Source: an uncultured Bdellovibrionales bacterium (GTDB lineage Bacteria; Patescibacteriota; Minisyncoccia; Moranbacterales; UBA1568). Taken from it: a DNA stretch of 64,000 bases. Both the position numbers and the translations under genes were made by a program. Shown one piece after another: positions 95-12,350 of this stretch (position 1 is the first letter of the stretch; the number at the start of each line of letters is the position of its first letter). The notes under the pieces are model-generated. The model had not been told where the DNA came from and searched no databases. It saw nothing but the letters and a program-made list of their open reading frames with translations. The DNA lies in assembly GCA_964624415.1 (NCBI GenBank), contig CAZUWR010000002.1, positions 12,454 through 76,453 of the forward strand, written 5' to 3'.

Positions 95-123
95 ACACAG
101 GGGTAAATTTAATTAATTAATTC
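95..123 (-). repeat. Partial inverted copy of the island repeat family (ACACAGGGGT-AAATTT-TTAATTAATTAAT). It overlaps the 3' end of the P-loop NTPase gene; the TTAATTAATTAA palindrome encodes the C-terminus and stop codon.
   Basis: By eye it aligns to the reverse complement of 8975-9010 (…CCCCTATGCAAT… / TTAATTAATTAA) and of 11070-11100. Confidence 0.5.
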
Positions 124-1398
124 TTTAAGTAGCCCTAACGCTATGTTACTATACAGCCAAGATAGCTTATTTGGAATAATAAAGGTCTTACTCGGTCTTC
201 CAGGATCATCATTTTTTACTCTTATTTCTTCCAGTATGCCAAGCGCAACCATTTCTTTTGCAATCTTTAATGTATATGGCTTGGAATACCCTGATGCTTT
301 CATGAGAGCCTCTATTCCAATCTTTCCATTGTTTTTAATGGCTTCAAGCAAACAGATAGAACGGTTATTCGGCATCGAATCAATGGCTACTCTCAAAATA
401 ACGCCAATATCAGCCCAGTTTATTTTATCTCTCGCTTGGATAATCGCATGTCCGCGAGCAAGGTTATAAAGCCACTGATTTATGCGATCGGGCCGTTCAC
501 ACATCGAAGTTATTTGGTCACCTTGCTCTTGAGTGGTTCCGCGTGACATTGCAAGCATACTAGCTACGATACCAATTGATTCAAGTAATGTCTGGTCTTC
601 ATTTCCAGTTTCCCACTCAATGCCTTTAGGGTGGCTTTCCCAAAGTGTTTTTATAAAATCACCGGTAGCCTCCTTACATGAGCGCTCCTTTTCTCGAACT
701 GGGTTGCGTAATTGATTAGCAAGAGCGGTTGTTGTTTTTTCTGCTGAACGTATCTTTAAGAAGAACAACCGCTGACCAAGGTTCCCCATAGAGCGCCATA
801 CTGCGTTAGAAATCGGCGTAGACGCTCCAAGAAGCATAAAAGGGTATTCTCCTCTATACCCGCGTGATCCATGCACTCCACTGTTCGTTTCTAACCCGCG
901 ACCGTCCATTACCCGAGTTAGTATTCCAAGGAGCATATTGCGATCGTCCTCGCGTTTGGAAAAAACAGGAGCTAGATCGGGCAATATAAGTGTTCGATAC
1001 CGAATACGTGGCAGGAGATCTATTTTTCCCAATTCTGATTCTTTTTTCTTGGCAGAATGAGATACAAAGGAAGCTGGAGTAAAATTATCAACCTGAAGAG
1101 TAACCCCATCCAGATCTGAAAAAAACCCTAAAAGTGTCGTTTTTCCCGATGAAGGCACATCTACATATATAAGTCCGAATGGATTTTGAATATCTTTGAT
1201 TAATAGTTGCGCGATAACACTCAGTCCAATTTCTGTTGCAAGTGTAAGATCCGGAAAATTATCCACTAAAACACCTCGCCACTCATCAAATTGGATGGTT
1301 TTGGTTGGATGTAGCGGAGTGAAGCGGAGATTATTTTGAACTTCTTCAATTTGTTCTTTTTTCTTTGACAATGCTTTTGATAATGGCTTCATACTCAT
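109..1398 (-). CDS. P-loop NTPase with a C-terminal winged-helix-like domain. Possibly a mobile-element replication or regulatory ATPase.
   Basis: Walker A YVDVPSSGKTTLL, then a hydrophobic-Asp stretch (LILPDL). The C-terminal segment ICLLEAIKNNGKIGIEALMKASGYSKPYTLKIAKEMV looks like a wHTH. No specific family is recognised. Confidence 0.35.
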   Translation of the reverse strand: MSMKPLSKALSKKKEQIEEVQNNLRFTPLHPTKTIQFDEWRGVLVDNFPDLTLATEIGLSVIAQLLIKDIQNPFGLIYVDVPSSGKTTLLGFFSDLDGVTLQVDNFTPASFVSHSAKKKESELGKIDLLPRIRYRTLILPDLAPVFSKREDDRNMLLGILTRVMDGRGLETNSGVHGSRGYRGEYPFMLLGASTPISNAVWRSMGNLGQRLFFLKIRSAEKTTTALANQLRNPVREKERSCKEATGDFIKTLWESHPKGIEWETGNEDQTLLESIGIVASMLAMSRGTTQEQGDQITSMCERPDRINQWLYNLARGHAIIQARDKINWADIGVILRVAIDSMPNNRSICLLEAIKNNGKIGIEALMKASGYSKPYTLKIAKEMVALGILEEIRVKNDDPGRPSKTFIIPNKLSWLYSNIALGLLKELIN

Positions 1399-1899: not shown

Positions 1900-2625
1900 T
1901 TATTTTGTCACCGTATTTTTGAGCCTTCTTCTCTTTTGTTTAAGTAAATCGGCAGACTTTTTATCCAAAATGCCCATCTCTTCGTATGATATGTGATCAA
2001 TGTTTTTGTCGCTAAGGTCATTATTAACCACACTCATCGTAATTTTATCGCTACACCCCTCATTAATCTTAACCGCCATTGCGTATTTCCATGGCGCTAA
2101 ATCCTTAATATCTTGCCTTGAGTGAAGTGTTGACTTCGCTTTTCCAAACAGCCTCTCTCTATCACTCTTATGGCACCGCCAAGCAAAAATAAGATCATCA
2201 AGAGTCGTGTTTTTATGAACCTCAAACGTAATGGTTTTTTCTTCTTCATTCACTTGAGCATGCGCATTGAACCGAACCGGTATCAAAACTCCGGTTAAAA
2301 CAAACCTTGTTAAAATAGGGTGCCATTCTTTTCCAAGTCCAAATGCTTTTTTCACCTGGTTTGTTTCTCTGAACAATGCAAGGAATGCTTCTGGATTAGC
2401 TTTCTCAAAGGATTTTGATTGTTGAATGGCCTCCTGCTCGATATTTTGAAACTCTTTTGGATGCTCATGCGCAACTATAGTTTCTCTATCCGATATCCCA
2501 TATTTCTTCCTCAAAGGAATAACATACGACATCAGATCTACCAATCTAGTCGCCACCAAAGCTTCCAAAAGGTAAATGGCATTCAAAACAACTTTTTCAT
2601 TATATACATCCATCTTCATTTTCAT
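1900..2625 (-). CDS. Hypothetical protein (241 aa), island gene
   Basis: Clean ORF with no recognisable domain. Confidence 0.4.
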   Translation of the reverse strand: MKMKMDVYNEKVVLNAIYLLEALVATRLVDLMSYVIPLRKKYGISDRETIVAHEHPKEFQNIEQEAIQQSKSFEKANPEAFLALFRETNQVKKAFGLGKEWHPILTRFVLTGVLIPVRFNAHAQVNEEEKTITFEVHKNTTLDDLIFAWRCHKSDRERLFGKAKSTLHSRQDIKDLAPWKYAMAVKINEGCSDKITMSVVNNDLSDKNIDHISYEEMGILDKKSADLLKQKRRRLKNTVTK

Positions 2626-2881
2626 TAATTTCCTCTATTATACCTTATTATTGATTTTAAGCAGGAAATGGTATACATTTAAGGTGGACTCACATTTACA
2701 ATTTTATCCTAATACTAGGCTTTTTTGCCTATTTTCATACCCATTTGTGTTTTGTAGCGGGCGCCTCCGATGCACGCAAATGGGAAAACCTTTAGGTAAT
2801 TCTGTAAGTGTGAGTCCCGTCGGGGCGTCCACTTTAGGTGAATAGACTACGCTTCGACGACTTAATCTTTAAGTCGTTTTT

Positions 2882-4180
2882 ATGTTAAAGAGAATAGTAA
2901 TTATTTCATTGTTTTTATTTTTTCCTCTATCCTCCTATGCCTCTGATAATAGGCTTTTAGATGGGTTTGATAAATGGGAAGCGGAGCAGAATAAAAAAGT
3001 AACAGTAATCCAACCTAGCAATGTTGAACAAAATAGTGTACAGCCCATACTGTATAGGAATGATGATTATAAATTCAGAATAAAATTCCCAGATGGATGG
3101 GAAATGAAGGATGGTGATGGACAGCATGTGGTTAAAAAGGCTGTAAAAGATAATAGCACCATCCTTATCCTTGTGAGGGAGTTTTCGGATTTCTTAGGTG
3201 ATGCTGGAAAAGACTCATTATCGCCGAAGGACATATCTGATCTTAATTCTGCCGAGTCCAACGATCTTTCTGATGAAGAAATCAATGTATTTCTAGAATC
3301 AATAGCAACCGGACAGCTCGAGGCTTTTCCTGGAAGCACCGTTCTAGAAAAAGGTATCCGCTATATTGATAATAGAAAGGCGGTTTACGTCAAGACGAAT
3401 CAGGTGTATAAGGTGCAAAATATGCAAGTAGAAGGTGTCTCGATAAACTATTTTACTCTCCATAAAGGAAAACTCTATCAAATTGGAGGATTTTATCCAA
3501 CAATACCCATAAATGAAACAGCTAAAGAAAGCATCATAAATACATCATTATCAACTTTTGTCTTTGAGAATTGGGATGATACAAAAAATGCTGTAAATGA
3601 AATAACATCCAATTCTGCTAATGAGGCACTTGGAGATTCGTATGGTAAAAACCTGAATGGGTTAGGGTTATCATTAACTATCATTTTAAGCATTCTTTTC
3701 ACTTGGGGATTGGGATTAATTATCCCTCTATTATTGCGATTTGTTTTTCTAAAAAGGCATCTTTCTGTTGAAATGGCATTATCTGTAGTTGCAGCCGTTT
3801 ACTTTATTCAATTAATAGGTTCTCTTGCGTTGGATAGCAAAAGTAAAAGCCATAGCGCATTACTTTTAGTTGCTTTTATATCCTATAGAATCATGAGGAA
3901 AGGCTCTATAGATAAGGAATCATCAAGAGAAATCCCTCATCCAAAAGTTGAATCCATAAAATATACCGCTAATAAAGAGCTGAGTTTATGGCATTCAAGA
4001 CTTGCGAATGTTATTTTAGTGCTTGTTGTACCAGTAGGCTGGATAGCATTTTTTGTTAGTGATGGGGGTGAATCTCGATATATTCCAATACTACCGCTGC
4101 TTATCGCATTGTCTGATCTCGCTGTATGGATTTTGTATAAAGCTATTCTTTACGTTATTTACGGATATCAAAAAAGGTAG
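2882..4180 (+). CDS. Secreted/membrane hypothetical protein
   Basis: N-terminal signal peptide (MLKRIVIISLFLFFPLSSYAS), a central soluble region and several C-terminal TM helices. Confidence 0.5.
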   Translation: MLKRIVIISLFLFFPLSSYASDNRLLDGFDKWEAEQNKKVTVIQPSNVEQNSVQPILYRNDDYKFRIKFPDGWEMKDGDGQHVVKKAVKDNSTILILVREFSDFLGDAGKDSLSPKDISDLNSAESNDLSDEEINVFLESIATGQLEAFPGSTVLEKGIRYIDNRKAVYVKTNQVYKVQNMQVEGVSINYFTLHKGKLYQIGGFYPTIPINETAKESIINTSLSTFVFENWDDTKNAVNEITSNSANEALGDSYGKNLNGLGLSLTIILSILFTWGLGLIIPLLLRFVFLKRHLSVEMALSVVAAVYFIQLIGSLALDSKSKSHSALLLVAFISYRIMRKGSIDKESSREIPHPKVESIKYTANKELSLWHSRLANVILVLVVPVGWIAFFVSDGGESRYIPILPLLIALSDLAVWILYKAILYVIYGYQKR

Positions 4181-4232
4181 TTTTAAAAAATGCTAATGCT
4201 AGCATGCTTAATTTTATTAAATCTACAATGAT

Positions 4233-4832
4233 ATGTTCGGTATTTTTCTGCAAAAAAACAAAGTGGTGTTACTTACGGCTATCATAGCATCCGTAATAAC
4301 CGCAGGCGCTTCATTGAGCTATGCCGCTATAAAGAACAAGAAAGAGGCTTCTGATCGAAAAATTGAAGCGCTACAGAAATCAATAGAGGACTTACAGATG
4401 AAAAATGAGCAATCTGCTAAGGCTGAAGAGCCTGAAAAGATAAGTATTGAAGCTGTTCAGCAAGCCGAAACATCCGAGATTGCTAGTCAAAAGAAAGTAA
4501 CTGGCAACAAAATTCTGGAATCCACCTCAGAAAAAACTCAACCAAAAGATACTGTTAAAGACGAACCGCTCGTAAAGTGCCTCTCTTATGATGGTAGCGT
4601 AGCTGAATTGAGCGCAAATGATTGTGAAATATTGAAGCAATCTAATGCAGTATTCGAAAAGATTGTAGATGAATACAAAAAATGCGTTTCTGACGCGGAA
4701 AACAGATTCCAGGATCGCCTAAACACGGGGTATGATTCATCAATGGTTACTGCTTACAATAAAACAGCGCAAGCATGTGCACTTGAAAGGAATAACCAAG
4801 TCAACAAATTTCAAAAAAACTTTAAAAAATAA
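4233..4832 (+). CDS. Membrane-anchored coiled-coil hypothetical protein
   Basis: N-terminal TM segment (VVLLTAIIASVITAGASLSYAAI) followed by a charged coiled-coil-like region. Confidence 0.45.
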   Translation: MFGIFLQKNKVVLLTAIIASVITAGASLSYAAIKNKKEASDRKIEALQKSIEDLQMKNEQSAKAEEPEKISIEAVQQAETSEIASQKKVTGNKILESTSEKTQPKDTVKDEPLVKCLSYDGSVAELSANDCEILKQSNAVFEKIVDEYKKCVSDAENRFQDRLNTGYDSSMVTAYNKTAQACALERNNQVNKFQKNFKK

Positions 4833-4927
4833 TAAAACAACCGGTCTGGTATGCGCACAGTATCCAACCAGAACCAGCCAATATGTATCCAATCACAACT
4901 AGTTAATGCTCATCAAGCTTACACCAT

Positions 4928-7900
4928 TCAATCCCAACGAAAATCGCGTATATCTGTATCAATATCCTCACGCTTGGCATCGCTTTCATAATTTTCCGCC
5001 ATTTTTCGAAGCATTCTCGCGGCACGAGGCCACTTCACTTTCAGAGCATCACCCATTTTTTTGTACTTCTCTGCCAGAGCTCTTTCTTGCTCTCCTCCGG
5101 CATCCAGGGATCGCGAAACCACTCCTCGGCTATTGAACAAGCCGGTTTGAATATGACTCTCTATGACTTCGCTTTTAAGTTTCTCAAGGAGATCCCTCAC
5201 AGCCTCATGAGGCCAGTGTCCGTCACTGCCAATGGGAGCGTTGGCAAGCATAAGACCAATTTGAATATCTCCCCCGGTCACATACTTTTTTGAAGCACAT
5301 TCTTCTCTTGCTGCCTCAATCCACTTCGAGAATTCTTTTTCGTTGAAAGATCCGTCCTTTTGGACTCCCGGAACAAGGTGCCAGGAATAGAGTACCTCCC
5401 GGGCGTTCTTCGCCAAAAAAGGAGAGGTCTCCCTCTTTTTCTTCGTTGGACTGGAAATTTGATCATCTTGCTTATAGACATAAGAAATAAGCTCAACAAA
5501 GAATAAATAGTCTTTTTGGAGGAGGCGATGAACAGCTAATGATGAACCGTGTTTTTCAAAACTATGGAAAAATGCTGCAAAAGGCCACTCTAACTTCATT
5601 ATTTCCTCCAGAGAAAGCTCATCTCTCTCCTGGAGCTGTCTAAATATATTTCCAAGATGATACTCATCCAAGGAGCCTCTTCTAAAATCCTTATGTTTAG
5701 AATCAACCAGTAAGACATCCTGCAGTAATCGCTGGAGCAGAGTACTTGGCAGAGATATTCTATGATCGCCGGCTATAGAGAGCGCGGAAAAGGGTCTTTT
5801 GGCGTCGAGGAGTTTTTCAACTGCAAAAGCCGTGTCTTCGATACTATCACCCTGAAAATATCCCGTAGCGTGATCCCAGTACGCGGCTTCTACTTCACTA
5901 CCACGAGCACCCACAAGAGACCACGTGGCTCTGCTTGAAGGTAAGCCTGAGTACAACAGCGCCTCGCGATCTGCAGTGTAGTTCCCTTTGGCCTTTATTC
6001 TTTTGGCCTGCTTCTCGATCCATTTTTGATCAGTGGCTTGTATTCTCCCTTGGGCATAACTTTCAAGCAGCATCGGATGTTTATTGGAGACACCGAGTAT
6101 TGCGTCCAGGACAGCACTGTCTTCTTTTTCATCTCGGATGATTTTTCCAAGTGCCTGCCCGAAAACACCCTGATATGAAATTTCACAGGCGTATTTGATG
6201 ATCTTTTTCAGCGTAACCTTATCCAAAATCTCACGCATTGCTTTCTCTCTGGCTTTGGTGATCGCCACGGTTTTTTCATCGTATTCCTTTGAATCTCCCT
6301 CTGGCAGTTCTGGCCAGGGATTATTTACTAGCCACCCCAGTCTTTCTAATGTATCTTTCGGGGTAATTTTTTCCAGTACTCGATTCAGTGCAGGAAGAAA
6401 CTTTTTTATTTCTCCATCGCCGTAGGTGTTGATCCAGTGCAGCGTGTCCCGGGTATTTTTAAAAAGCTCCGAAACTTTCTCTTTTGGAAGACTTTTGAGG
6501 CTTTCTTTTTCAATTACCTCCAGAAGATGTTCTCGTATTTCTATGGGAAGTCGGATAAAGTCATCCATCGAAGTTGCCAAGTTTTCCTCCGCAGATGCAA
6601 CATCAATCATTCGCGGGAATAAACCTTTGCTATATTCCTGGTCTTCTGCTCCATTTTCTCGCTCAAGCCCGCGTCTTGGATTGCCGGTCTCTCGCCACCG
6701 GAAGCGGTGTGATTCACTGAAGCTTTCGGGACTGAAATAGCCTTTAGCAAAATCCCAAGTTAACTTCGGGTTCTGTGATACAAGTTTTTCAAATACCCCA
6801 ATTCGCTCTTGGGGCGTGGAACAAGTTTGTGGATATGCTGGCCGGAAAATATCCTTCAGGCTATTCAGAGGCCGATTACTATAACCTCTGCCCTGATCAA
6901 TCTGAGCCAGCTTTAAAAGGATGTCTGCAGAATCCCCTAAATACTCTGAGTCCCAAGCTGTGGATTCAAGAGCCCAAAGCAATCCTGAATGCTTACACTC
7001 GCCGAAAATACCACCTTCGTCCTTCATTAATTCTTTAAATACATCTGGTCGAGTTTCTATAGCCCTCGCCAGACCCTGCAGAAAAGCGTCCGGAGCCGCC
7101 TCAGCGAGAAGGGGGGTCATATCTGAGAGTGACGCCCAGACCTCCCAAGTACTGGCTCTGGTTAAAACTTCCTCTACGATTCTATCGGCGAATGCCTGTG
7201 AGGAGGAGATATGAGGGCAATGATCACTGTGAACTGCTAAGAGTACAAGAGATTCGACCAGTCCGGTTTGTATCCACCCAGAATACGGGCTGACTTTTCC
7301 ATACACAGCTGCAGCCCAACGCTTCTCTACTGCTAGACGGTACTTCGGATCAGTCTTGGTAAGTATCGAAAGAAGGGACGTCTTAAAAAGTTTCAGAAAG
7401 CTTTCGCTAAGATGCGAAGCAAGAAGTTCCCAGGTATCGAGCGGTGCTTTAATCATCCATACGCTTCCCGATTTTCTGATAGGCGTGTCATCCACCCTAA
7501 GAAGCTTTTCTAGTTTCTTGGAATATTCCTCATATTTTAATCCAGAAAGAGTTTCCAATATACGACGATCTCCCTCCTTGTTTTCATCCCAAGAGCCCGC
7601 GAACAATGCAGGAAAGAGAAGATCTGTTTTATCGGGAGCTGCCCACGCAGGTTGGCTTGCGCTTGTGGAAGAAAGCTGGCGATGAAGAACCGGGATGCTT
7701 CGTCCAAAATCTCTGGCCAGTTTCTGAGACTGCACTCCAGACACTCCGTTTTCTAAAAACTTCTTTTCTATTACGTTCCGTTTTGGCCGTGAAAGCCTTA
7801 TTACTTTGCCGTGCAGATCAATTGATTGTGCGTCTGCTGTTAGGAAGACGTGATGGCCATTCTTAACGGCGAGATCAGCAGCGTTTCTACAATCAGCAGG

Positions 7901-8707
7901 CGCGACAATTATGAGATTTTTAAAGTTCGCACTACAGTCTTTAAATTGTTGAATATTTTCTACTACTACACATCGAGAAAATGCTCGAAGTTTGTCTGTT
8001 TCAGAAAGCTCAGTAAGAGCAGCGTACAAAAATGCGCTAGGCTCTTCTGGAGAATCCCCCTGCACTTCTAACAACTCAGGAATACCCACTACCCATTGAT
8101 GGATACGGGCAACTTCGATTGCTCGACCACCAATTACAACGGCCGGGGCGATTTCCGGACTGGTTCCTGCTGCCCACTCTTCCCAGAAACCTTCAATGTC
8201 CTGAATGCCTCCAGAGAGCCCTTTAATTTGGCGAGCTAGCCACAGAGCTACTGCGGGTGTAGCTGAAAGCCAAGACACAAGCTTATCAACAGCAATAACT
8301 TTCACATCAGCCCACTCATAAGTAGCCTTCTTCTTGGCTTCCCAGTTCGTCCTGTCTTTCCAGGGGCGTGGAGTAACAAAAATGAAAGTCGTACTTTGAG
8401 GATCTATCCCCAATGGATTTTTTGTCCGTTTCGTGTAATCATCCTCAGCCTTTTTCCCTGGATTAGCTCCCGTCCCGATTTCCCAGACCGACTCTCCTGC
8501 AGGAAAAAAGCGCGAGCCAGAAGAGGATCGCAGATGGCCATCCCAGCCTCCGATTGCCGTGTTGTCACCACTCGGGAAGTCTATCTCTTCGATAGATGCT
8601 GAGCTGGCCAATATCAAACGACTAAGAAGCTGAGGCAGAGTAGTCTCGCAGTCTTTTTTCTTCCCTGTCAGCCAGGTTTTTATGTCACCAGAATCTATCC
8701 AAATCAT
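4928..8707 (-). CDS. Very large (1259 aa) hypothetical protein with no recognisable NTPase or nuclease motif. Candidate defense/accessory function.
   Basis: Uninterrupted 3.78-kb ORF. I found no Walker A, DEAD/DExH, HxH or YxDD motifs by eye. The C-terminal third is predicted helical/repeat-like. Confidence 0.6.
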   Translation of the reverse strand: MIWIDSGDIKTWLTGKKKDCETTLPQLLSRLILASSASIEEIDFPSGDNTAIGGWDGHLRSSSGSRFFPAGESVWEIGTGANPGKKAEDDYTKRTKNPLGIDPQSTTFIFVTPRPWKDRTNWEAKKKATYEWADVKVIAVDKLVSWLSATPAVALWLARQIKGLSGGIQDIEGFWEEWAAGTSPEIAPAVVIGGRAIEVARIHQWVVGIPELLEVQGDSPEEPSAFLYAALTELSETDKLRAFSRCVVVENIQQFKDCSANFKNLIIVAPADCRNAADLAVKNGHHVFLTADAQSIDLHGKVIRLSRPKRNVIEKKFLENGVSGVQSQKLARDFGRSIPVLHRQLSSTSASQPAWAAPDKTDLLFPALFAGSWDENKEGDRRILETLSGLKYEEYSKKLEKLLRVDDTPIRKSGSVWMIKAPLDTWELLASHLSESFLKLFKTSLLSILTKTDPKYRLAVEKRWAAAVYGKVSPYSGWIQTGLVESLVLLAVHSDHCPHISSSQAFADRIVEEVLTRASTWEVWASLSDMTPLLAEAAPDAFLQGLARAIETRPDVFKELMKDEGGIFGECKHSGLLWALESTAWDSEYLGDSADILLKLAQIDQGRGYSNRPLNSLKDIFRPAYPQTCSTPQERIGVFEKLVSQNPKLTWDFAKGYFSPESFSESHRFRWRETGNPRRGLERENGAEDQEYSKGLFPRMIDVASAEENLATSMDDFIRLPIEIREHLLEVIEKESLKSLPKEKVSELFKNTRDTLHWINTYGDGEIKKFLPALNRVLEKITPKDTLERLGWLVNNPWPELPEGDSKEYDEKTVAITKAREKAMREILDKVTLKKIIKYACEISYQGVFGQALGKIIRDEKEDSAVLDAILGVSNKHPMLLESYAQGRIQATDQKWIEKQAKRIKAKGNYTADREALLYSGLPSSRATWSLVGARGSEVEAAYWDHATGYFQGDSIEDTAFAVEKLLDAKRPFSALSIAGDHRISLPSTLLQRLLQDVLLVDSKHKDFRRGSLDEYHLGNIFRQLQERDELSLEEIMKLEWPFAAFFHSFEKHGSSLAVHRLLQKDYLFFVELISYVYKQDDQISSPTKKKRETSPFLAKNAREVLYSWHLVPGVQKDGSFNEKEFSKWIEAAREECASKKYVTGGDIQIGLMLANAPIGSDGHWPHEAVRDLLEKLKSEVIESHIQTGLFNSRGVVSRSLDAGGEQERALAEKYKKMGDALKVKWPRAARMLRKMAENYESDAKREDIDTDIRDFRWD

Positions 8708-8791
8708 AATCTTTTTCTTTTAAAGATACCTCTTTCCACGTTTAAGTAATTATCCTAAGGAAAGAACTATGTGTCAAAATTGCCTTATGCT

Positions 8792-8821
8792 CATCAAACC
8801 AGAACCAACCGATCTCCAAAG
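8792..8821 (+). repeat. Partial extra copy of the 5' arm of the island repeat (TCATCAAACCAGAACCAACC…)
   Basis: About 80% match to 8944-8973. Confidence 0.3.
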
Positions 8822-8940
8822 ACTTCAACTTTTCTATATCATCCAAACCCCAAAAGTATATTTCATGCCCATTGATCATAGTGAGAAGGTATTTGATCTC
8901 TTTTACTGAAATATAAAGCAAAAAGATGGTTTGAATTTGC

Positions 8941-9090
8941 ATATCATCGAACCAGAACTAACCTACTTCTCATTAATTAATTAACAAATTCAACCCCTAT
9001 GCAATACCCCCCAGTAAAATGGTTCGAACTTCATTGACCATCGAGATCCAAGAATGGAAACGGTCTCGAAAGAAGCTATTTTTGTTTTAT
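8941..9090 (+). repeat. Island repeat copy A, immediately downstream of the RT stop codon
   Basis: ATATCATCGAACCAGAACTAACC…TTAATTAATTAAC…CCCCTATG…GGTTCGAACTTCATTGACCATCGAG…CTATTTTTGTTTTATTTAAG. It aligns at about 75% identity with 11037-11200. Confidence 0.6.
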
Positions 9091-9095
9091 TTAAG

Positions 9096-10067
9096 CTACT
9101 TTCTATATTTTTCAACATAGTTTTTATAACGATTCATGGCTTTCTTTCTAGATGAAAATGTTTTTCTATCCTGAGAAGATGGGTTGGCATTAAGAAGGTC
9201 TTTAATCTTCTTTTTCTTCGCTCTTGCTTTTATTCCTACAGCCAAACTGTCGCGACGTAAGTCAATCCCGACATAATGCATCCCGTCCCTATGAGATCGG
9301 ATACTTGTCTTTTTTTCATTTATTCTGAGTGGTTGATTAGGATCAGCCTCAGCCAATAATTTCACAATTTCATTTCTCAGCTCTTCCATTGCTTTCTTGA
9401 AAACATGACTAGCCGTGATACCAATATCATCGACATAAATAGCTATTCTTGGGTCATGTCCTTTGAGCCTCTTTAAAACAAGATTTCGCAACTTCAGGAA
9501 TAAGTTAAGATTGCACCAAACGGCTAGTCGCGGGGATGTAGCAAAGCCCCTTGCAATGGTCATGATGGGTCCACCAGAGCCCTTGGGGCCCAAAGGGACA
9601 CAACAGAGCCTGGTGAGGATTTTAGAAGCTCTGGGGCTACATCCGCACATTCGTTTGAAAAAGAACTCGACCCTGGAGCTCTCAACTTGCTCGAAAAATC
9701 GTCTTAGGTCAAGTTTTAGCATATGCCGCCTCATCTTTGATCCCAAAAGCTCCCTGGCCGCCATCACATGATCTCTTTTTTTAAGACCTCCGAAAATAAA
9801 AAATGGCACCAAATTATCATGAGGCGCCAAAACCAATGCATTTATTTTTCGATGTAGTTTCTTAAGATTCTTCCCTGAAGCATTTCGAATATACTTGCCT
9901 TTTTTCAACTCAGAACTAGCGCTATCTTTCCAGTATGAATCGAGATTTAAAAGACAGTCATTTATCAAATCAAGGGCTTCCTTCGAAGGAAAGTCTTTGT
10001 GGCTAATATGCTTCGCAAGCTCATTTTTACTTTTTATGAAAAGCTTCGGATAAATTGACTTTGACAT
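9096..10067 (-). CDS. Reverse transcriptase, retron-like (fingers-palm only, 323 aa)
   Basis: RT motifs in order: FIFGGLKKRDHVMAARELL…LKLDLRRFFEQV (motifs 2/A), ARGFATSPRLAVWCNLNL (retron-type PQGxxxSPxLxN), IAIYVDDIGI (YxDD catalytic box), INEKKTSI (motif 6), HYVGIDL (retron VTG-like). There is no RNase H, maturase or endonuclease domain. Confidence 0.85.
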   Translation of the reverse strand: MSKSIYPKLFIKSKNELAKHISHKDFPSKEALDLINDCLLNLDSYWKDSASSELKKGKYIRNASGKNLKKLHRKINALVLAPHDNLVPFFIFGGLKKRDHVMAARELLGSKMRRHMLKLDLRRFFEQVESSRVEFFFKRMCGCSPRASKILTRLCCVPLGPKGSGGPIMTIARGFATSPRLAVWCNLNLFLKLRNLVLKRLKGHDPRIAIYVDDIGITASHVFKKAMEELRNEIVKLLAEADPNQPLRINEKKTSIRSHRDGMHYVGIDLRRDSLAVGIKARAKKKKIKDLLNANPSSQDRKTFSSRKKAMNRYKNYVEKYRK

Positions 10068-10383
10068 ACTTTTTCAACCGCTTAGCTCGGTTATAAATAA
10101 GAAGATCTTGCATCTTTTCCCCCCATTCCACCAGAAGTTTTTCCACACCACTTACTCGACCCTTACTTAACTCGGTATCCATGAAAAGAAATGGGGTGAT
10201 AGATGCTGGATGAACATCCATTCGATCGGCAAGTTTCAATAAAAACCCCTTAGAGACTTCTTTCTGTCCAGTCTCAATCATCGCAATAAGGACTGCCGAC
10301 ACATTCAAAGCAGAGGCAAACTCCGCCTGAGTCAAACCAGATTCACTCCTGATTTTCTTAATAAGTTCCGAAAAAGTATACAT
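10027..10383 (-). CDS. XRE-family helix-turn-helix protein whose 3' end overlaps the RT start by 41 nt
   Basis: IRSESGLTQAEFASALNVSAVLIAMIETGQKEVSKGFLLKLADRMDV is a classic XRE/Cro-type HTH. Its stop codon (10027-10029) lies inside the RT ORF (RT start codon at 10065-10067). Confidence 0.75.
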   Translation of the reverse strand: MYTFSELIKKIRSESGLTQAEFASALNVSAVLIAMIETGQKEVSKGFLLKLADRMDVHPASITPFLFMDTELSKGRVSGVEKLLVEWGEKMQDLLIYNRAKRLKKYVKVNLSEAFHKK

Positions 10384-10589
10384 AAAACCACTACGAGACG
10401 ACTACCAATTGATCAAGTCCAGGATGATGCGAACAATCCGAAGGATTGAATACAACATCCGCAAGAACTTTTTCATATTTAGTAGCCGCCTCGCTATACG
10501 AAAGCTTCGATTCAGCAATGAAGAAGTGATTCATAGTGTTTCCATTATAGCTAGGACTGGCTTATTATTATCTTTGTTGCTATTTAGAA

Positions 10590-10880
10590 GCACAAACCAA
10601 CTTCGCCCGACGGTTAAGAGTTTCGAGTGGTAAAAACAGCTTTCGGTAACTATTAAATAACCCGTCGGGCTAATTGATAGGTGCTCTGCAAGTTGAATGT
10701 GCGAAACAAATCACTTACTTCCCAACTCTACCATCCTATCTCTCATCATTATCATGTCCAAACTAGTCCGAATACGACTCGTGATAACCGACGAAATAGG
10801 TTGCTAGGGTCGAGCTCCGCTCAATAAAGAGTGGTCAGATAATTCCTCCAGAGGAACATCTATTATTTTCGATTTTTTAA
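10590..10880. ncRNA. Candidate structured non-coding RNA (possibly the RT-associated ncRNA) in the 0.95-kb ORF-poor stretch upstream of the HTH-RT pair
   Basis: A perfect 9-bp GC-rich stem GCCCGACGG (10604-10612) pairs with CCGTCGGGC (10662-10670) around a 49-nt loop, in an otherwise AT-rich spacer. A weak hairpin plus T-tract lies at 10844-10880. The only ORF here (10409-10633) is implausible. Confidence 0.3.
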
Positions 10881-11036
10881 CCGTTTTTGATGCGTGAATC
10901 ATTTGTTAAGCAACAGTCCTATTCACAATTATATACAAAACGTATAACTCCTGTCAAGCTTCCACTCCAGCAGAGACTTATTCAAAGTAGACAATATCTT
11001 CCCAATTAAGACTGTTCTTATGTGACAGGAAAATAT

Positions 11037-11200
11037 ATATCATCGAACCAAAACCAACCTATTTTTTATTAATTAACACATTCAGCCCCTGTGTAACACT
11101 CTCCATTTCCCCCATATTTTCCACCAAAAGAGTTCGAACTTCGTTGACTACCGAGCTCACATATCAAAAAAGTGACTATCTAAGTCTCTTTTTGTTAATT
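11037..11200 (+). repeat. Island repeat copy B, upstream of the DUF4238-like gene
   Basis: ATATCATCGAACCAAAACCAACC…TTAATTAACAC…CCCCTGTG…AGTTCGAACTTCGTTGACTACCGAG…CTCTTTTTGTTAATTTGCAG. Confidence 0.6.
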
Positions 11201-11342: not shown

Positions 11343-12350
11343 ATGGCTCAAGGAAAACCAAAAGATCATTATGTGCCACAGTTTTATCTAGACGCTTTTG
11401 CTATAGAGGGTCCGGGAAAGAAACGATCTCATATATACCAATATATGGACAAGCAAGTAGTTTCTTCAAGAATAAGTGATGTTGCTAGTGAAAAAGATTA
11501 CTACACCTTTATACTAGATGAGGAAGATAAGAATACTGTCACTAGAGATGTTGATGATTTTTTTACAAATATAGAGGCTTCAGCAGCACCAGTGATTCAG
11601 CGGATTATAAAAGAAGAAAGTTTGGACATTACTAAAGAAGAAAGGGGATGGGTAGCTGTCTTTTTTTCGACATTAGCTGTACGTACACCAGGCTTTCTTA
11701 ATCTAGCGCAAGCACTACATGGTACTGCAATAAAAGAAATTGGTATAGCTGGAGCAGTGAATAAAGAAGTTCTAGCTGAGGATGTAAGGCGAGCAGGAAT
11801 GACAATTGATGAAAAACAACTTAATAACCTTCATAATTTTGTTATGAAGGGGGACTACGATATTACTTTTTCTAAAAAATCAAAGTCGTATTTTGTTGCT
11901 ACAGGGCTTAAAGACGCAAAAAATCTATCCAATATGTATTTTGAAAAGTTCTGGCATCTACTATTGGTAAATGGAAAAACTCCACTCTTAACCTCAGATA
12001 ATCCGGTTTCTCTTTATAGACCAAAATACATACCGGCCATATATAATGCTGGTTATGGTAATGGGGTCATAGTGATACCTCTTTCACCTAATGTAGCCAT
12101 ATTAATGAGAGAAAAACCTCTTCGAAAAGAAATTTCTCATATTAACGAATATATGGTAAGACGTCTCAATCAGAATACAATCCGTTTCTCTAATGAGTTT
12201 GTTTTTGGAAATCTACACATTCCCCAACTTGAGAAGCTTTTTAATAAAACACCAAAAAAGGCACACCAAAAGGTAAAAGCAACAAGAATAAAATGGACTC
12301 CATACACAGTTATGAGTACGGGCGTTATCCCGGAAGAATTTATAAAATAA
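11343..12350 (+). CDS. DUF4238-family-like protein (N-terminal HYVPQFYL signature)
   Basis: The N-terminus KDHYVPQFYLDAFA matches the HxVPxxYLxxF hallmark I associate with DUF4238 proteins (the family appears near defense/abortive-infection genes). 335 aa. Confidence 0.5.
   Translation: MAQGKPKDHYVPQFYLDAFAIEGPGKKRSHIYQYMDKQVVSSRISDVASEKDYYTFILDEEDKNTVTRDVDDFFTNIEASAAPVIQRIIKEESLDITKEERGWVAVFFSTLAVRTPGFLNLAQALHGTAIKEIGIAGAVNKEVLAEDVRRAGMTIDEKQLNNLHNFVMKGDYDITFSKKSKSYFVATGLKDAKNLSNMYFEKFWHLLLVNGKTPLLTSDNPVSLYRPKYIPAIYNAGYGNGVIVIPLSPNVAILMREKPLRKEISHINEYMVRRLNQNTIRFSNEFVFGNLHIPQLEKLFNKTPKKAHQKVKATRIKWTPYTVMSTGVIPEEFIK

Follow-up and report, generated by a model that had tools for sequence, protein, structure and literature searches.

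Type VI retrons pair a reverse transcriptase (RT) with a Cro/C1-type helix-turn-helix (HTH) protein, and some members also have small accessory proteins (Mestre et al. 2020). The gene for such a small protein (SP), which lies between the non-coding RNA (ncRNA) and the HTH gene, has been annotated in only ~27% of the known HTH-encoding members. A locus with this composition is located on the minus strand of the stretch considered here, a window of 64,000 nucleotides from a bacterium of the candidate phyla radiation (CPR). The locus is in all likelihood a complete Type VI retron transcribed as one operon, in which a toxin would be locked within the leader RNA and controlled by the HTH protein and the RT.

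The closest described systems are two Type VI retrons. Retron-Vpa2, a member of the “Large” lineage, produces a hybrid RNA of ~470 nt that unites the msr-msd with the coding sequence (CDS) of a toxic SP and lies upstream of the HTH gene (Zhang et al., bioRxiv 10.1101/2025.10.22.683967). Both the ribosome-binding site and the start codon of this SP are buried in stems. The HTH protein, the RT and the RNA are found in one complex, and the multicopy single-stranded DNA (msDNA) made upon infection derepresses SP translation (bioRxiv 10.1101/2025.10.22.683967). Retron-Sen3 shows the order SP-HTH-RT, with the HTH gene upstream of or partly overlapping the RT gene (Garcia-Rodriguez et al., bioRxiv 10.64898/2026.04.27.721009). 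Its basal stem contains the SP ribosome-binding site, and the ncRNA is joined to the SP region by a pairing over a long range; the SP is neutralized by the HTH protein, and the trigger is the inhibition of RecBCD (bioRxiv 10.64898/2026.04.27.721009). Relief of SP toxicity by the HTH protein and protection against phages are experimental findings for both Vpa2 and Sen3. The class is further characterized by RT-dependent msDNA whose priming starts from the 2′-OH of a conserved G. The initial annotation of the window, which was made from the sequence alone, had regarded the layout of the locus as atypical and possibly undescribed. Type VI retrons are known to have the order SP-HTH-RT, with an HTH gene of cluster 2_1, and in Vpa2 the ncRNA and the SP CDS share one hybrid RNA ahead of that gene; the order found here (structured RNA, small open reading frame (ORF), HTH, RT) is therefore the published, canonical one (bioRxiv 10.64898/2026.04.27.721009; 10.1101/2025.10.22.683967).

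Homologs of the RT number 340, and those that carry a name are almost all from CPR/Patescibacteria (Moranbacteria, Saccharibacteria, Paceibacterota). Fifty related loci were fetched for comparison: 44 represent one genome per species, and six are close relatives whose RTs are 86%, 71% (four contigs) and 68% identical to that of the window. All 50 contain an RT homolog. A full HTH gene lies directly upstream of the RT gene and overlaps it in 45 of them, with one further locus cut at a contig edge. Isolated phages, plasmids and IMG/VR viral contigs yielded no relatives of the RT, except for a remote Burkholderia phage polymerase, and there is thus no sign of the RT family being phage-borne.

The RT gene (9096-10067, minus strand) encodes 323 amino acids with the motifs KLDLRRFFEQ, GFATSPRLAVWCNL, YVDD, INEKKT and HYVGIDL. 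Pfam finds RVT_1 only, with no RNase H, maturase or endonuclease domain. The best PADLOC match is RT_VI (4.5e-29, 99.6 bits); the second-best model reaches 48 bits. RT_VI is likewise matched by all 28 sampled homologs, which reach 2.6e-34 there at best, followed by RT_IV at 2.9e-23. A scan of NCBIfam gave retron RT matches below threshold only, and the search of solved structures gave none. The HTH gene (10027-10383, minus strand) overlaps the RT gene by 41 nt and codes for a 118-amino acid Cro/C1-type protein, the presumed antitoxin and repressor. Pfam recognizes HTH_3 (1e-10) and HTH_31 in this protein, and its best PADLOC match is HTH_VI (2.1e-12). It resembles C.AhdI and HipB, and its NCBIfam matches are of antitoxin or repressor type (the HipB-type, RstR and DicA families). 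By PADLOC profile comparison, the RT is a member of the Type VI retron clade. The motif set, the missing domains and the 41-nt overlap with an XRE-type HTH gene had all been read correctly in the initial annotation, and its proposal of a retron, probably of type VI, agrees with the two profile matches and with the structured RNA that adjoins the pair.

This RNA is the leader of the operon. It extends over ~540 nt (10384-10921, minus strand), with its 5′ end inferred from the promoter, and would form a hybrid RNA composed of an msr-msd-like ncRNA and the toxin CDS. When 10384-10900 is folded with RNAfold, the energy is −162.9 kcal/mol (z = −5.56), and none of 100 shuffled sequences is as stable. 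Conserved blocks and helices recur in the leader across the relatives. An alignment of all 36 full-length leaders by MAFFT followed by RNAalifold was rejected as too gappy for structure prediction, and anchored segments and tests of cognate against non-cognate arms were used instead. Scans of the region against Rfam, both at gathering thresholds and by E-value, found no retron or other RNA family, with only chance matches to miRNAs and snoRNAs.

The leader appears to be closed by an a2/a1-like helix, E2, whose 5′ arm UGAUUCA (10895-10901, minus strand) pairs with UGAAUCG (10508-10514). A conserved structured RNA is present beside the RT-HTH pair, as anticipated at the outset. The E2 pairing keeps its relative positions across 36 loci and comes in many arm variants, such as CAAUUCA/UGAAUUG, UGGUUCA/UGAACCG and CAGUUUAG/CUAAACUG. 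The helix covaries, but is statistically weaker than the other helices of the leader. Another long-range helix, E1 (10914-10921 with 10552-10559), is supported in ~10 closer relatives only. Inside E2 lies a conserved msr-like stem-loop, UAGAUGUUCC...GGAAUUAUCUGACC (10833-10862, minus strand). Its outer AGAU/AUCU stem is recovered by RNAalifold, its inner stems vary with compensation and the trailing AUCUGACC is conserved. This is the hairpin with a T-tract that had been marked earlier at 10844-10880; seen here at 10862-10833, it is a conserved part of the retron RNA, and a terminator scan did not call it a terminator. Between the stem-loop and the extended hairpin P5, a single long hairpin in the minimum free energy fold (10722-10813, minus strand) is the candidate msd (template) stem. 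The corresponding region ranges from <30 to 149 nt across the loci and is not conserved in sequence.

P5 (10588-10686, minus strand) carries the loop element K5, CGAAAGCU (10638-10645). Its apical part is a perfect 9-bp GC stem formed by GCCCGACGG (10670-10662) and CCGTCGGGC (10613-10605). The initial annotation had noticed this stem, and the pairing stands as described; the coordinates of one arm were one base off (10605-10613 is correct), and the loop measures 48 nt. In each of the 36 loci, 8-18 contiguous pairs build an apical stem around the K5 loop, in many different sequences; cognate arms of P5 form 11.5 bp on average, as compared with 8.4 bp when the arms are non-cognate.

K5 is complementary to a second element, K3 (AGCUUUCG, 10499-10506, minus strand), which resides directly 5′ of the toxin ribosome-binding site and directly 3′ of the second arm of E2. 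The two would pair as a long-range kissing interaction or pseudoknot. At least eight contiguous K5-K3 pairs are available in 36 of 36 loci, with a spacing of 113-141 nt in 35 and 166 nt in the remaining one. The arms occur in 29 distinct sequences, and 8 bp are reached by only 13% of the non-cognate combinations. RNAduplex was discarded here, being too greedy and placing the sites inconsistently, in favor of a test in a fixed register. In this register, eight consecutive positions are paired in all 36 loci with 2-5 pair types each, and the flanking positions are mostly unpaired.

Immediately downstream of K3, a hairpin encloses the toxin CDS (10393-10495, minus strand) and is predicted to sequester the ribosome-binding site. 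The region of this site, AGCGAGGCGGCUAC, opens the 5′ arm (10477-10495) and pairs with a stretch immediately past the stop codon of the toxin, in the 3′ arm that ends in GUAGUCGUCUCGU (10393-10413). The hairpin is predicted in most of 41 loci, each folded alone. RNAalifold recovers nine pairs of the sequestering stem, eight of which show compensatory changes. In a count of 14 pairs, 11 show double changes, with 86.6% of the cells paired. When the stem was tested together with a 9-bp inner hairpin, the observed values were reached by 0 of 500 shuffles and slid controls paired in 35-51%; as the relatives share ancestry, these shuffle statistics overstate the significance and are not probabilities, yet the distinct compensated variants are still many. 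An upstream structured RNA in which the SP ribosome-binding site is sequestered is a feature of the Type VI class, and both the stability of the fold and the covarying helices point to such an RNA here.

About 0.95 kb upstream of the HTH gene had initially been taken to lack a credible ORF. It contains two small overlapping ORFs (10391-10534 and 10402-10518/10476) which are present in all related loci examined. The longer of the two, frame A (10391-10534, minus strand), codes for 47 amino acids and is the one annotated by gene callers. The other, frame B, lies in the +1 frame (10402-10476, minus strand) and encodes the candidate SP toxin, MKKFLRMLYSILRIVRIILDLINW, which has 24 amino acids when read from a conserved ATG and 38 if translation starts at the TTG at 10518. 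In a gapless alignment of 31 loci, the entropy of frame B is highest at codon position 3 (1.60) and lowest at position 2 (1.07), and amino acid identity amounts to 0.305 in frame B, 0.151 in frame A and 0.188 in the third frame. The BLOSUM score per site is +0.70 for frame B versus −0.12 for frame A. The ATG of frame B stands at a conserved distance from the stop codon and follows a strong Shine–Dalgarno sequence in 84% of the loci, as compared with 0% for the HTH gene. The predicted peptides are 20-31 amino acids long, cationic, 54-75% hydrophobic and strongly amphipathic, with a hydrophobic moment (muH) of 0.45-0.86. These properties would match those of the C-terminal helix that is essential for the toxicity of published SPs. 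The toxin is most likely this cationic amphipathic peptide of ~24 amino acids. One related locus (L019) has an in-frame stop within an otherwise conserved frame B peptide (SMKFFRAL*ILLQVV...), which may represent a decayed toxin or a sequencing error.

Frame A, for its part, remains open over 46-61 codons in 41 of 41 loci with its ATG at a conserved distance, and is open in 35 of 35 loci when ~21% would be expected under synonymous recoding of frame B. There is no amino acid conservation in frame A across its overlap with frame B. In 33 of 41 loci the frame stops 4-14 nt short of the HTH ATG (7 nt in the window), and a Shine–Dalgarno sequence before this ATG is absent in all 41. It appears that frame A may be a translated leader whose termination feeds ribosomes to the HTH gene and from there, through the 41-nt overlap, to the RT gene.

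Two other explanations of these genes have to be weighed, one for the RT and one for the small protein. The RT could belong to another class, that is, the defense-associated DRT/UG or Abi groups, group II introns, the diversity-generating retroelements (DGRs) or CRISPR-associated RTs, with the HTH gene being a mere neighbor. Weak secondary matches to the Drt3a, UG26, UG17 and Cas-associated RT models would be in keeping with this, but the RT_VI score is twice that of any other model, and the best UG/DRT matches reach ~1e-7 for the window RT, against 4.5e-29, and ~1e-13 to 1e-14 for the homologs, against 2.6e-34. Apart from one CRISPR-associated RT model at 1.7e-12, the families matched by all 28 homologs are retron RTs, and the HTH-RT overlap is kept in 45 of the 50 loci. 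A group II intron or DGR origin was set aside as neither a group II intron RNA nor another Rfam family was detected in the region, Pfam reports RVT_1 without a maturase or endonuclease domain, and a repeat pair resembling the template and variable repeats (TR/VR) of DGRs was not found near the RT. A DRT/UG or Abi assignment was likewise dropped with RT_VI so far ahead of the UG/DRT profiles. Membership of any of these classes is thus highly improbable. A more serious case can be made for frame A as the real small protein, with frame B as a side effect of constraints on the RNA structure. Gene callers report frame A in two related loci (L045 and L046), it is open in all examined loci with its ATG at a conserved distance and stops just before the HTH gene, and its length of 46-61 amino acids is near that of the 55-amino acid SP of Vpa2. 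Within the overlap, however, frame A is best conserved at codon position 3 and varies most at position 1, and its amino acid identity falls below that of the non-coding third frame, with a negative BLOSUM score. The product is neither hydrophobic nor amphipathic, unlike the known SPs, and its Shine–Dalgarno sequence is weak. The period-three conservation of U at codon position 2 of frame B would not be expected from RNA structure alone. It is therefore unlikely that frame A encodes the toxin, and the frame B peptide is the preferred candidate.

A different question is raised by two direct repeats that bracket the operon. The upstream copy (11037-11200, minus strand) is outside the transcription unit, ~80 nt upstream of the −35 box, and the downstream copy (8941-9090, minus strand) begins 6 nt past the RT stop codon. 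Identity is 79% between 8941-9013 and 11037-11105 and 82% between 9016-9048 and 11126-11158, becoming weaker out to ~9095/11205. The initial annotation had described a cassette bounded by these repeats; the repeats are real, but as a cassette boundary they are not general. The two could be att-like or recombination ends of a mobile 2.2-kb retron cassette. They bracket the operon closely, long copies number only two in the 64 kb against a chance expectation of 0.00-0.03, and the 20-nt core they share turns up again at further module boundaries in the surrounding island. A related locus (L010) has 193-bp flanking repeats beside a serine recombinase gene. On the other hand, the copies in the window are 76-82% identical and contain indels, and therefore represent no fresh target duplication. 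The closest retron copy, L045, is homologous (89% at the nucleotide level) from 10947 to 9108 only, a span that reaches from the promoter to the stop codon of the RT gene; its flanks are unrelated and without repeats. Flanking repeats of any kind occur in only 3 of 36 related loci, leaving 33 without them, and no recombinase is found beside the retron in the window. Moreover, the repeat was not found in the related loci, the composite pattern has no metagenome match, and the 25 metagenome matches to the 20-nt core look accidental and lack a long ORF in the GWFWFD frame. A mobile cassette is thus an improbable explanation. The direct repeats are not part of the retron and most likely reflect the recombination history of the defense island. 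In L010 itself, the gene directly upstream of the retron encodes a 529-amino acid large serine recombinase (1358-2947, recognized by eye from the sequence). The 3′ end of this gene is the upstream repeat, and a copy of it, 193 bp long and 74% identical, lies downstream of the RT.

The operon would be transcribed from a σ70-type promoter (10928-10957, minus strand) consisting of TTGACA, 18 nt and TATAAT, which agrees with the consensus at 12 of 12 positions. The TTGAC box and its spacing are kept upstream of the retron RNA in the related loci. Between the −35 and −10 elements, and overlapping the latter, is a conserved 15-bp palindrome, TATACGTTTTGTATA (10932-10946, minus strand). The pattern TATAC-N5-GTATA occurs in ~34 of 41 loci, at a distance of 468-632 nt upstream of the start codon of the HTH gene, and is exact in 28. 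The palindrome is the candidate operator of the HTH protein, which is itself akin to controllers and antitoxins of the HTH type. A further element, the DnaA-box-like TGTGGATAA or a near variant, is observed 5-15 nt ahead of the −35 box of the retron promoter in ~14 related loci, including L001, L002, L005, L009, L011, L015, L018, L019, L020, L033 and L040, and is absent from the window.

The locus shares with Vpa2 the operon order of ncRNA, SP (a candidate in the window), HTH and RT and a single structured hybrid RNA of about 470-540 nt. The two would also be alike in having the toxin ribosome-binding site in a stem, a hydrophobic-helix toxin and an HTH protein as the brake. The SP of Vpa2 has 55 amino acids against ~24 in the window, with no detectable homology. 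In the window, unlike Vpa2, the predicted partner of the ribosome-binding site is a segment just past the stop codon of the toxin, the putative toxin is read in the +1 frame within a longer open frame, and the host is a CPR bacterium. The link between ncRNA and riboregulator also differs, with K5-K3 complementarity taking the place of the 7-nt direct repeats of Vpa2.

Similar parallels are seen with Sen3/cl2075. These include the order SP-HTH-RT, the partial overlap of HTH and RT, a basal stem that would bury the ribosome-binding site of the SP, a long-range contact, likewise conserved, from the ncRNA to the SP region, and a variable internal ncRNA stem. The toxin of Sen3/cl2075 has an amphipathic C-terminal helix (muH ~0.6), and the peptides predicted here are amphipathic as well. 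The Sen3 SP, however, comprises 79 amino acids with extra N-terminal helices, its lineage is proteobacterial, and its IR1-IR2 pairing flanks the SP CDS, whereas that of the window joins a hairpin loop to a site 5′ of the ribosome-binding site. An operator palindrome and overlapping reading frames are mentioned in neither the Vpa2 nor the Sen3 preprint. Along with the K5-K3 contact and the size of the CPR clade, the palindrome and the +1-frame mini-toxin within the leader ORF would go beyond the existing descriptions.

There is also a resemblance to type I toxin–antitoxin systems such as hok and tisB, which encode hydrophobic or amphipathic peptides of 20-30 amino acids, have the Shine–Dalgarno sequence locked in a long-range mRNA stem, and in which a leader frame may affect translation. 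The similarity goes no further, as the window has no antisense RNA antitoxin and control is expected from the HTH protein and the RT.

By analogy with Retron-Vpa2 and Retron-Sen3, a scheme of operation can be postulated. The HTH protein would bind the palindrome and the operon would thereby be autoregulated. In association with the RT and the RNA, the HTH protein may silence the toxin by blocking its translation, by neutralizing the peptide, or both, with translation of the HTH and RT genes being coupled to the leader ORF. Phage infection would result in the accumulation of msDNA or in the loss of HTH control. The RNA lock would then open and the peptide would be made, leading to the arrest or death of the cell in an abortive infection. 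An additional idea, put forward by the present analysis, is that complementary DNA of the K5 hairpin would have a loop resembling K3, which could titrate K5 and break the K5-K3 lock.

To the shared ancestry of the compared loci can be added several other points that weigh against the reading of the locus as a Type VI retron with a toxin locked in its leader. The 99.6 bits of the RT against RT_VI is a modest score indicative of a divergent branch, and the class has been assigned by profile comparison only. The frame B peptide shows no similarity to the published SP clusters tested, which have 55-79 amino acids compared with its ~24. The long-range helices E1 and E2 cross, which implies either a pseudoknot or a fold that switches between states. 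None of the six Type VI retrons of the published census, one of them from a CPR bacterium (Levybacteria), gave detectable msDNA in Escherichia coli (bioRxiv 10.64898/2026.04.27.721009). Direct repeats in the style of Vpa2, between the msd loop or ncRNA and the riboregulator, are nowhere consistently placed in these loci, and the unlocking mechanism may therefore differ.

A more specific proposal is made tentatively, with the balance tilting slightly against it: that the locus represents a distinct riboregulatory variant of Type VI common in CPR bacteria. In this variant the toxin would be a +1-frame peptide of ~24 amino acids, and the sole purpose of the leader ORF would be to deliver ribosomes to an HTH gene devoid of a Shine–Dalgarno sequence. 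The toxin ribosome-binding site would be kept shut by the sequestering stem and the 8-bp K5-K3 contact; this contact would take the place of the repeats of Vpa2, and msDNA mimicking K3 could break it.

The surroundings of the retron form a low-GC island (1-11.3 kb of the window) in which the retron is preceded by a DUF4238-Pers gene and followed by a terminase remnant and a 1259-amino acid gene. Each direct repeat ends in the 20-mer GGTTRGTTYTGGTTYGATGA. Copies of this 20-mer are located at module boundaries of the island, at 1293-1312 on the plus strand and at 4862-4882, 8791-8810, 8944-8963 and 11040-11059 on the minus strand. Four of these match with ≤3 mismatches, against 0.03 expected, and none is found in the other 53 kb or in ~410 kb of related loci; the copy at 4862-4882, just 3′ of the 1259-amino acid gene, has four mismatches. 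In frame, the copies read IGWFW(F/L)D, which resembles the Walker B motif of terminases, and they differ mostly at third codon positions. The copy at 8791-8810, the third of the core of the repeats, is inside the terminase large-subunit remnant, a 66-amino acid ORF (8742-8942, minus strand) that matches Pfam Terminase_3 (1.6e-5) and the PHROG terminase large subunit (8.7e-5). The direct repeats themselves, translated as a test of terminase origin, have no Pfam or PHROG match. It is suspected that the 20-mer copies mark past rounds of recombination in the island with DNA from phages or satellites.

Other genes of the island were noted in passing. The 1259-amino acid ORF (4928-8707, minus strand) has no Pfam, PADLOC or NCBIfam match and has 199 homologs nearly uniform in length, most of 1255-1279 amino acids and 45-54% identity, in metagenome-assembled genomes of CPR bacteria, Margulisbacteria and Bryobacteraceae. 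It has its own promoter (8777-8749; 11 of 12 consensus positions), which is kept in the related locus L051. In L052 and L053, a Terminase_2 gene is situated 1.2 kb away. The ORF may be an uncharacterized single-gene defense candidate. In the two closest relatives of the retron (L045:2778-6680 and L050:3797-7879), an Avs2-type STAND NTPase is encoded directly 3′ of the RT with a gap of 60-70 nt (PADLOC 7e-189 and 0), in the place where the window has the terminase remnant. These proteins align from profile position ~175 onward and seem to lack the usual N-terminal part. Avs2 senses phage terminase. A relationship between the 1259-amino acid gene and these Avs2 genes was rejected, as no similarity was found. 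On the other side of the retron, a divergent DUF4238 gene (11343-12350, plus strand) matches Pfam at 6e-40 and PADLOC DUF4238-Pers at 2.8e-12, so that a second defense candidate adjoins the retron. A 429-amino acid ORF (109-1398, minus strand), with a Walker-A-like GKT motif seen by eye and no match in Pfam, PADLOC, PHROGs or NCBIfam, forms a low-GC block (0.35-0.38) beside the retron along with ORFs of no known family at 1900-4832.

The basic picture of the Type VI retron is unchanged by this locus, and the flanking repeats are a feature of this island and not of the retron. Automatic gene calls at such loci probably choose the wrong frame for the toxin. Should the CPR variant prove true, the “missing” SP of most annotated Type VI retrons may be an unannotated or mis-framed mini-ORF. 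Concrete RNA contacts and a candidate minimal toxin are now on offer for testing. A retron whose toxin is translationally locked in its own RNA would extend this mechanism of defense to a large clade of ultrasmall CPR bacteria, as represented by the 340 homologs.

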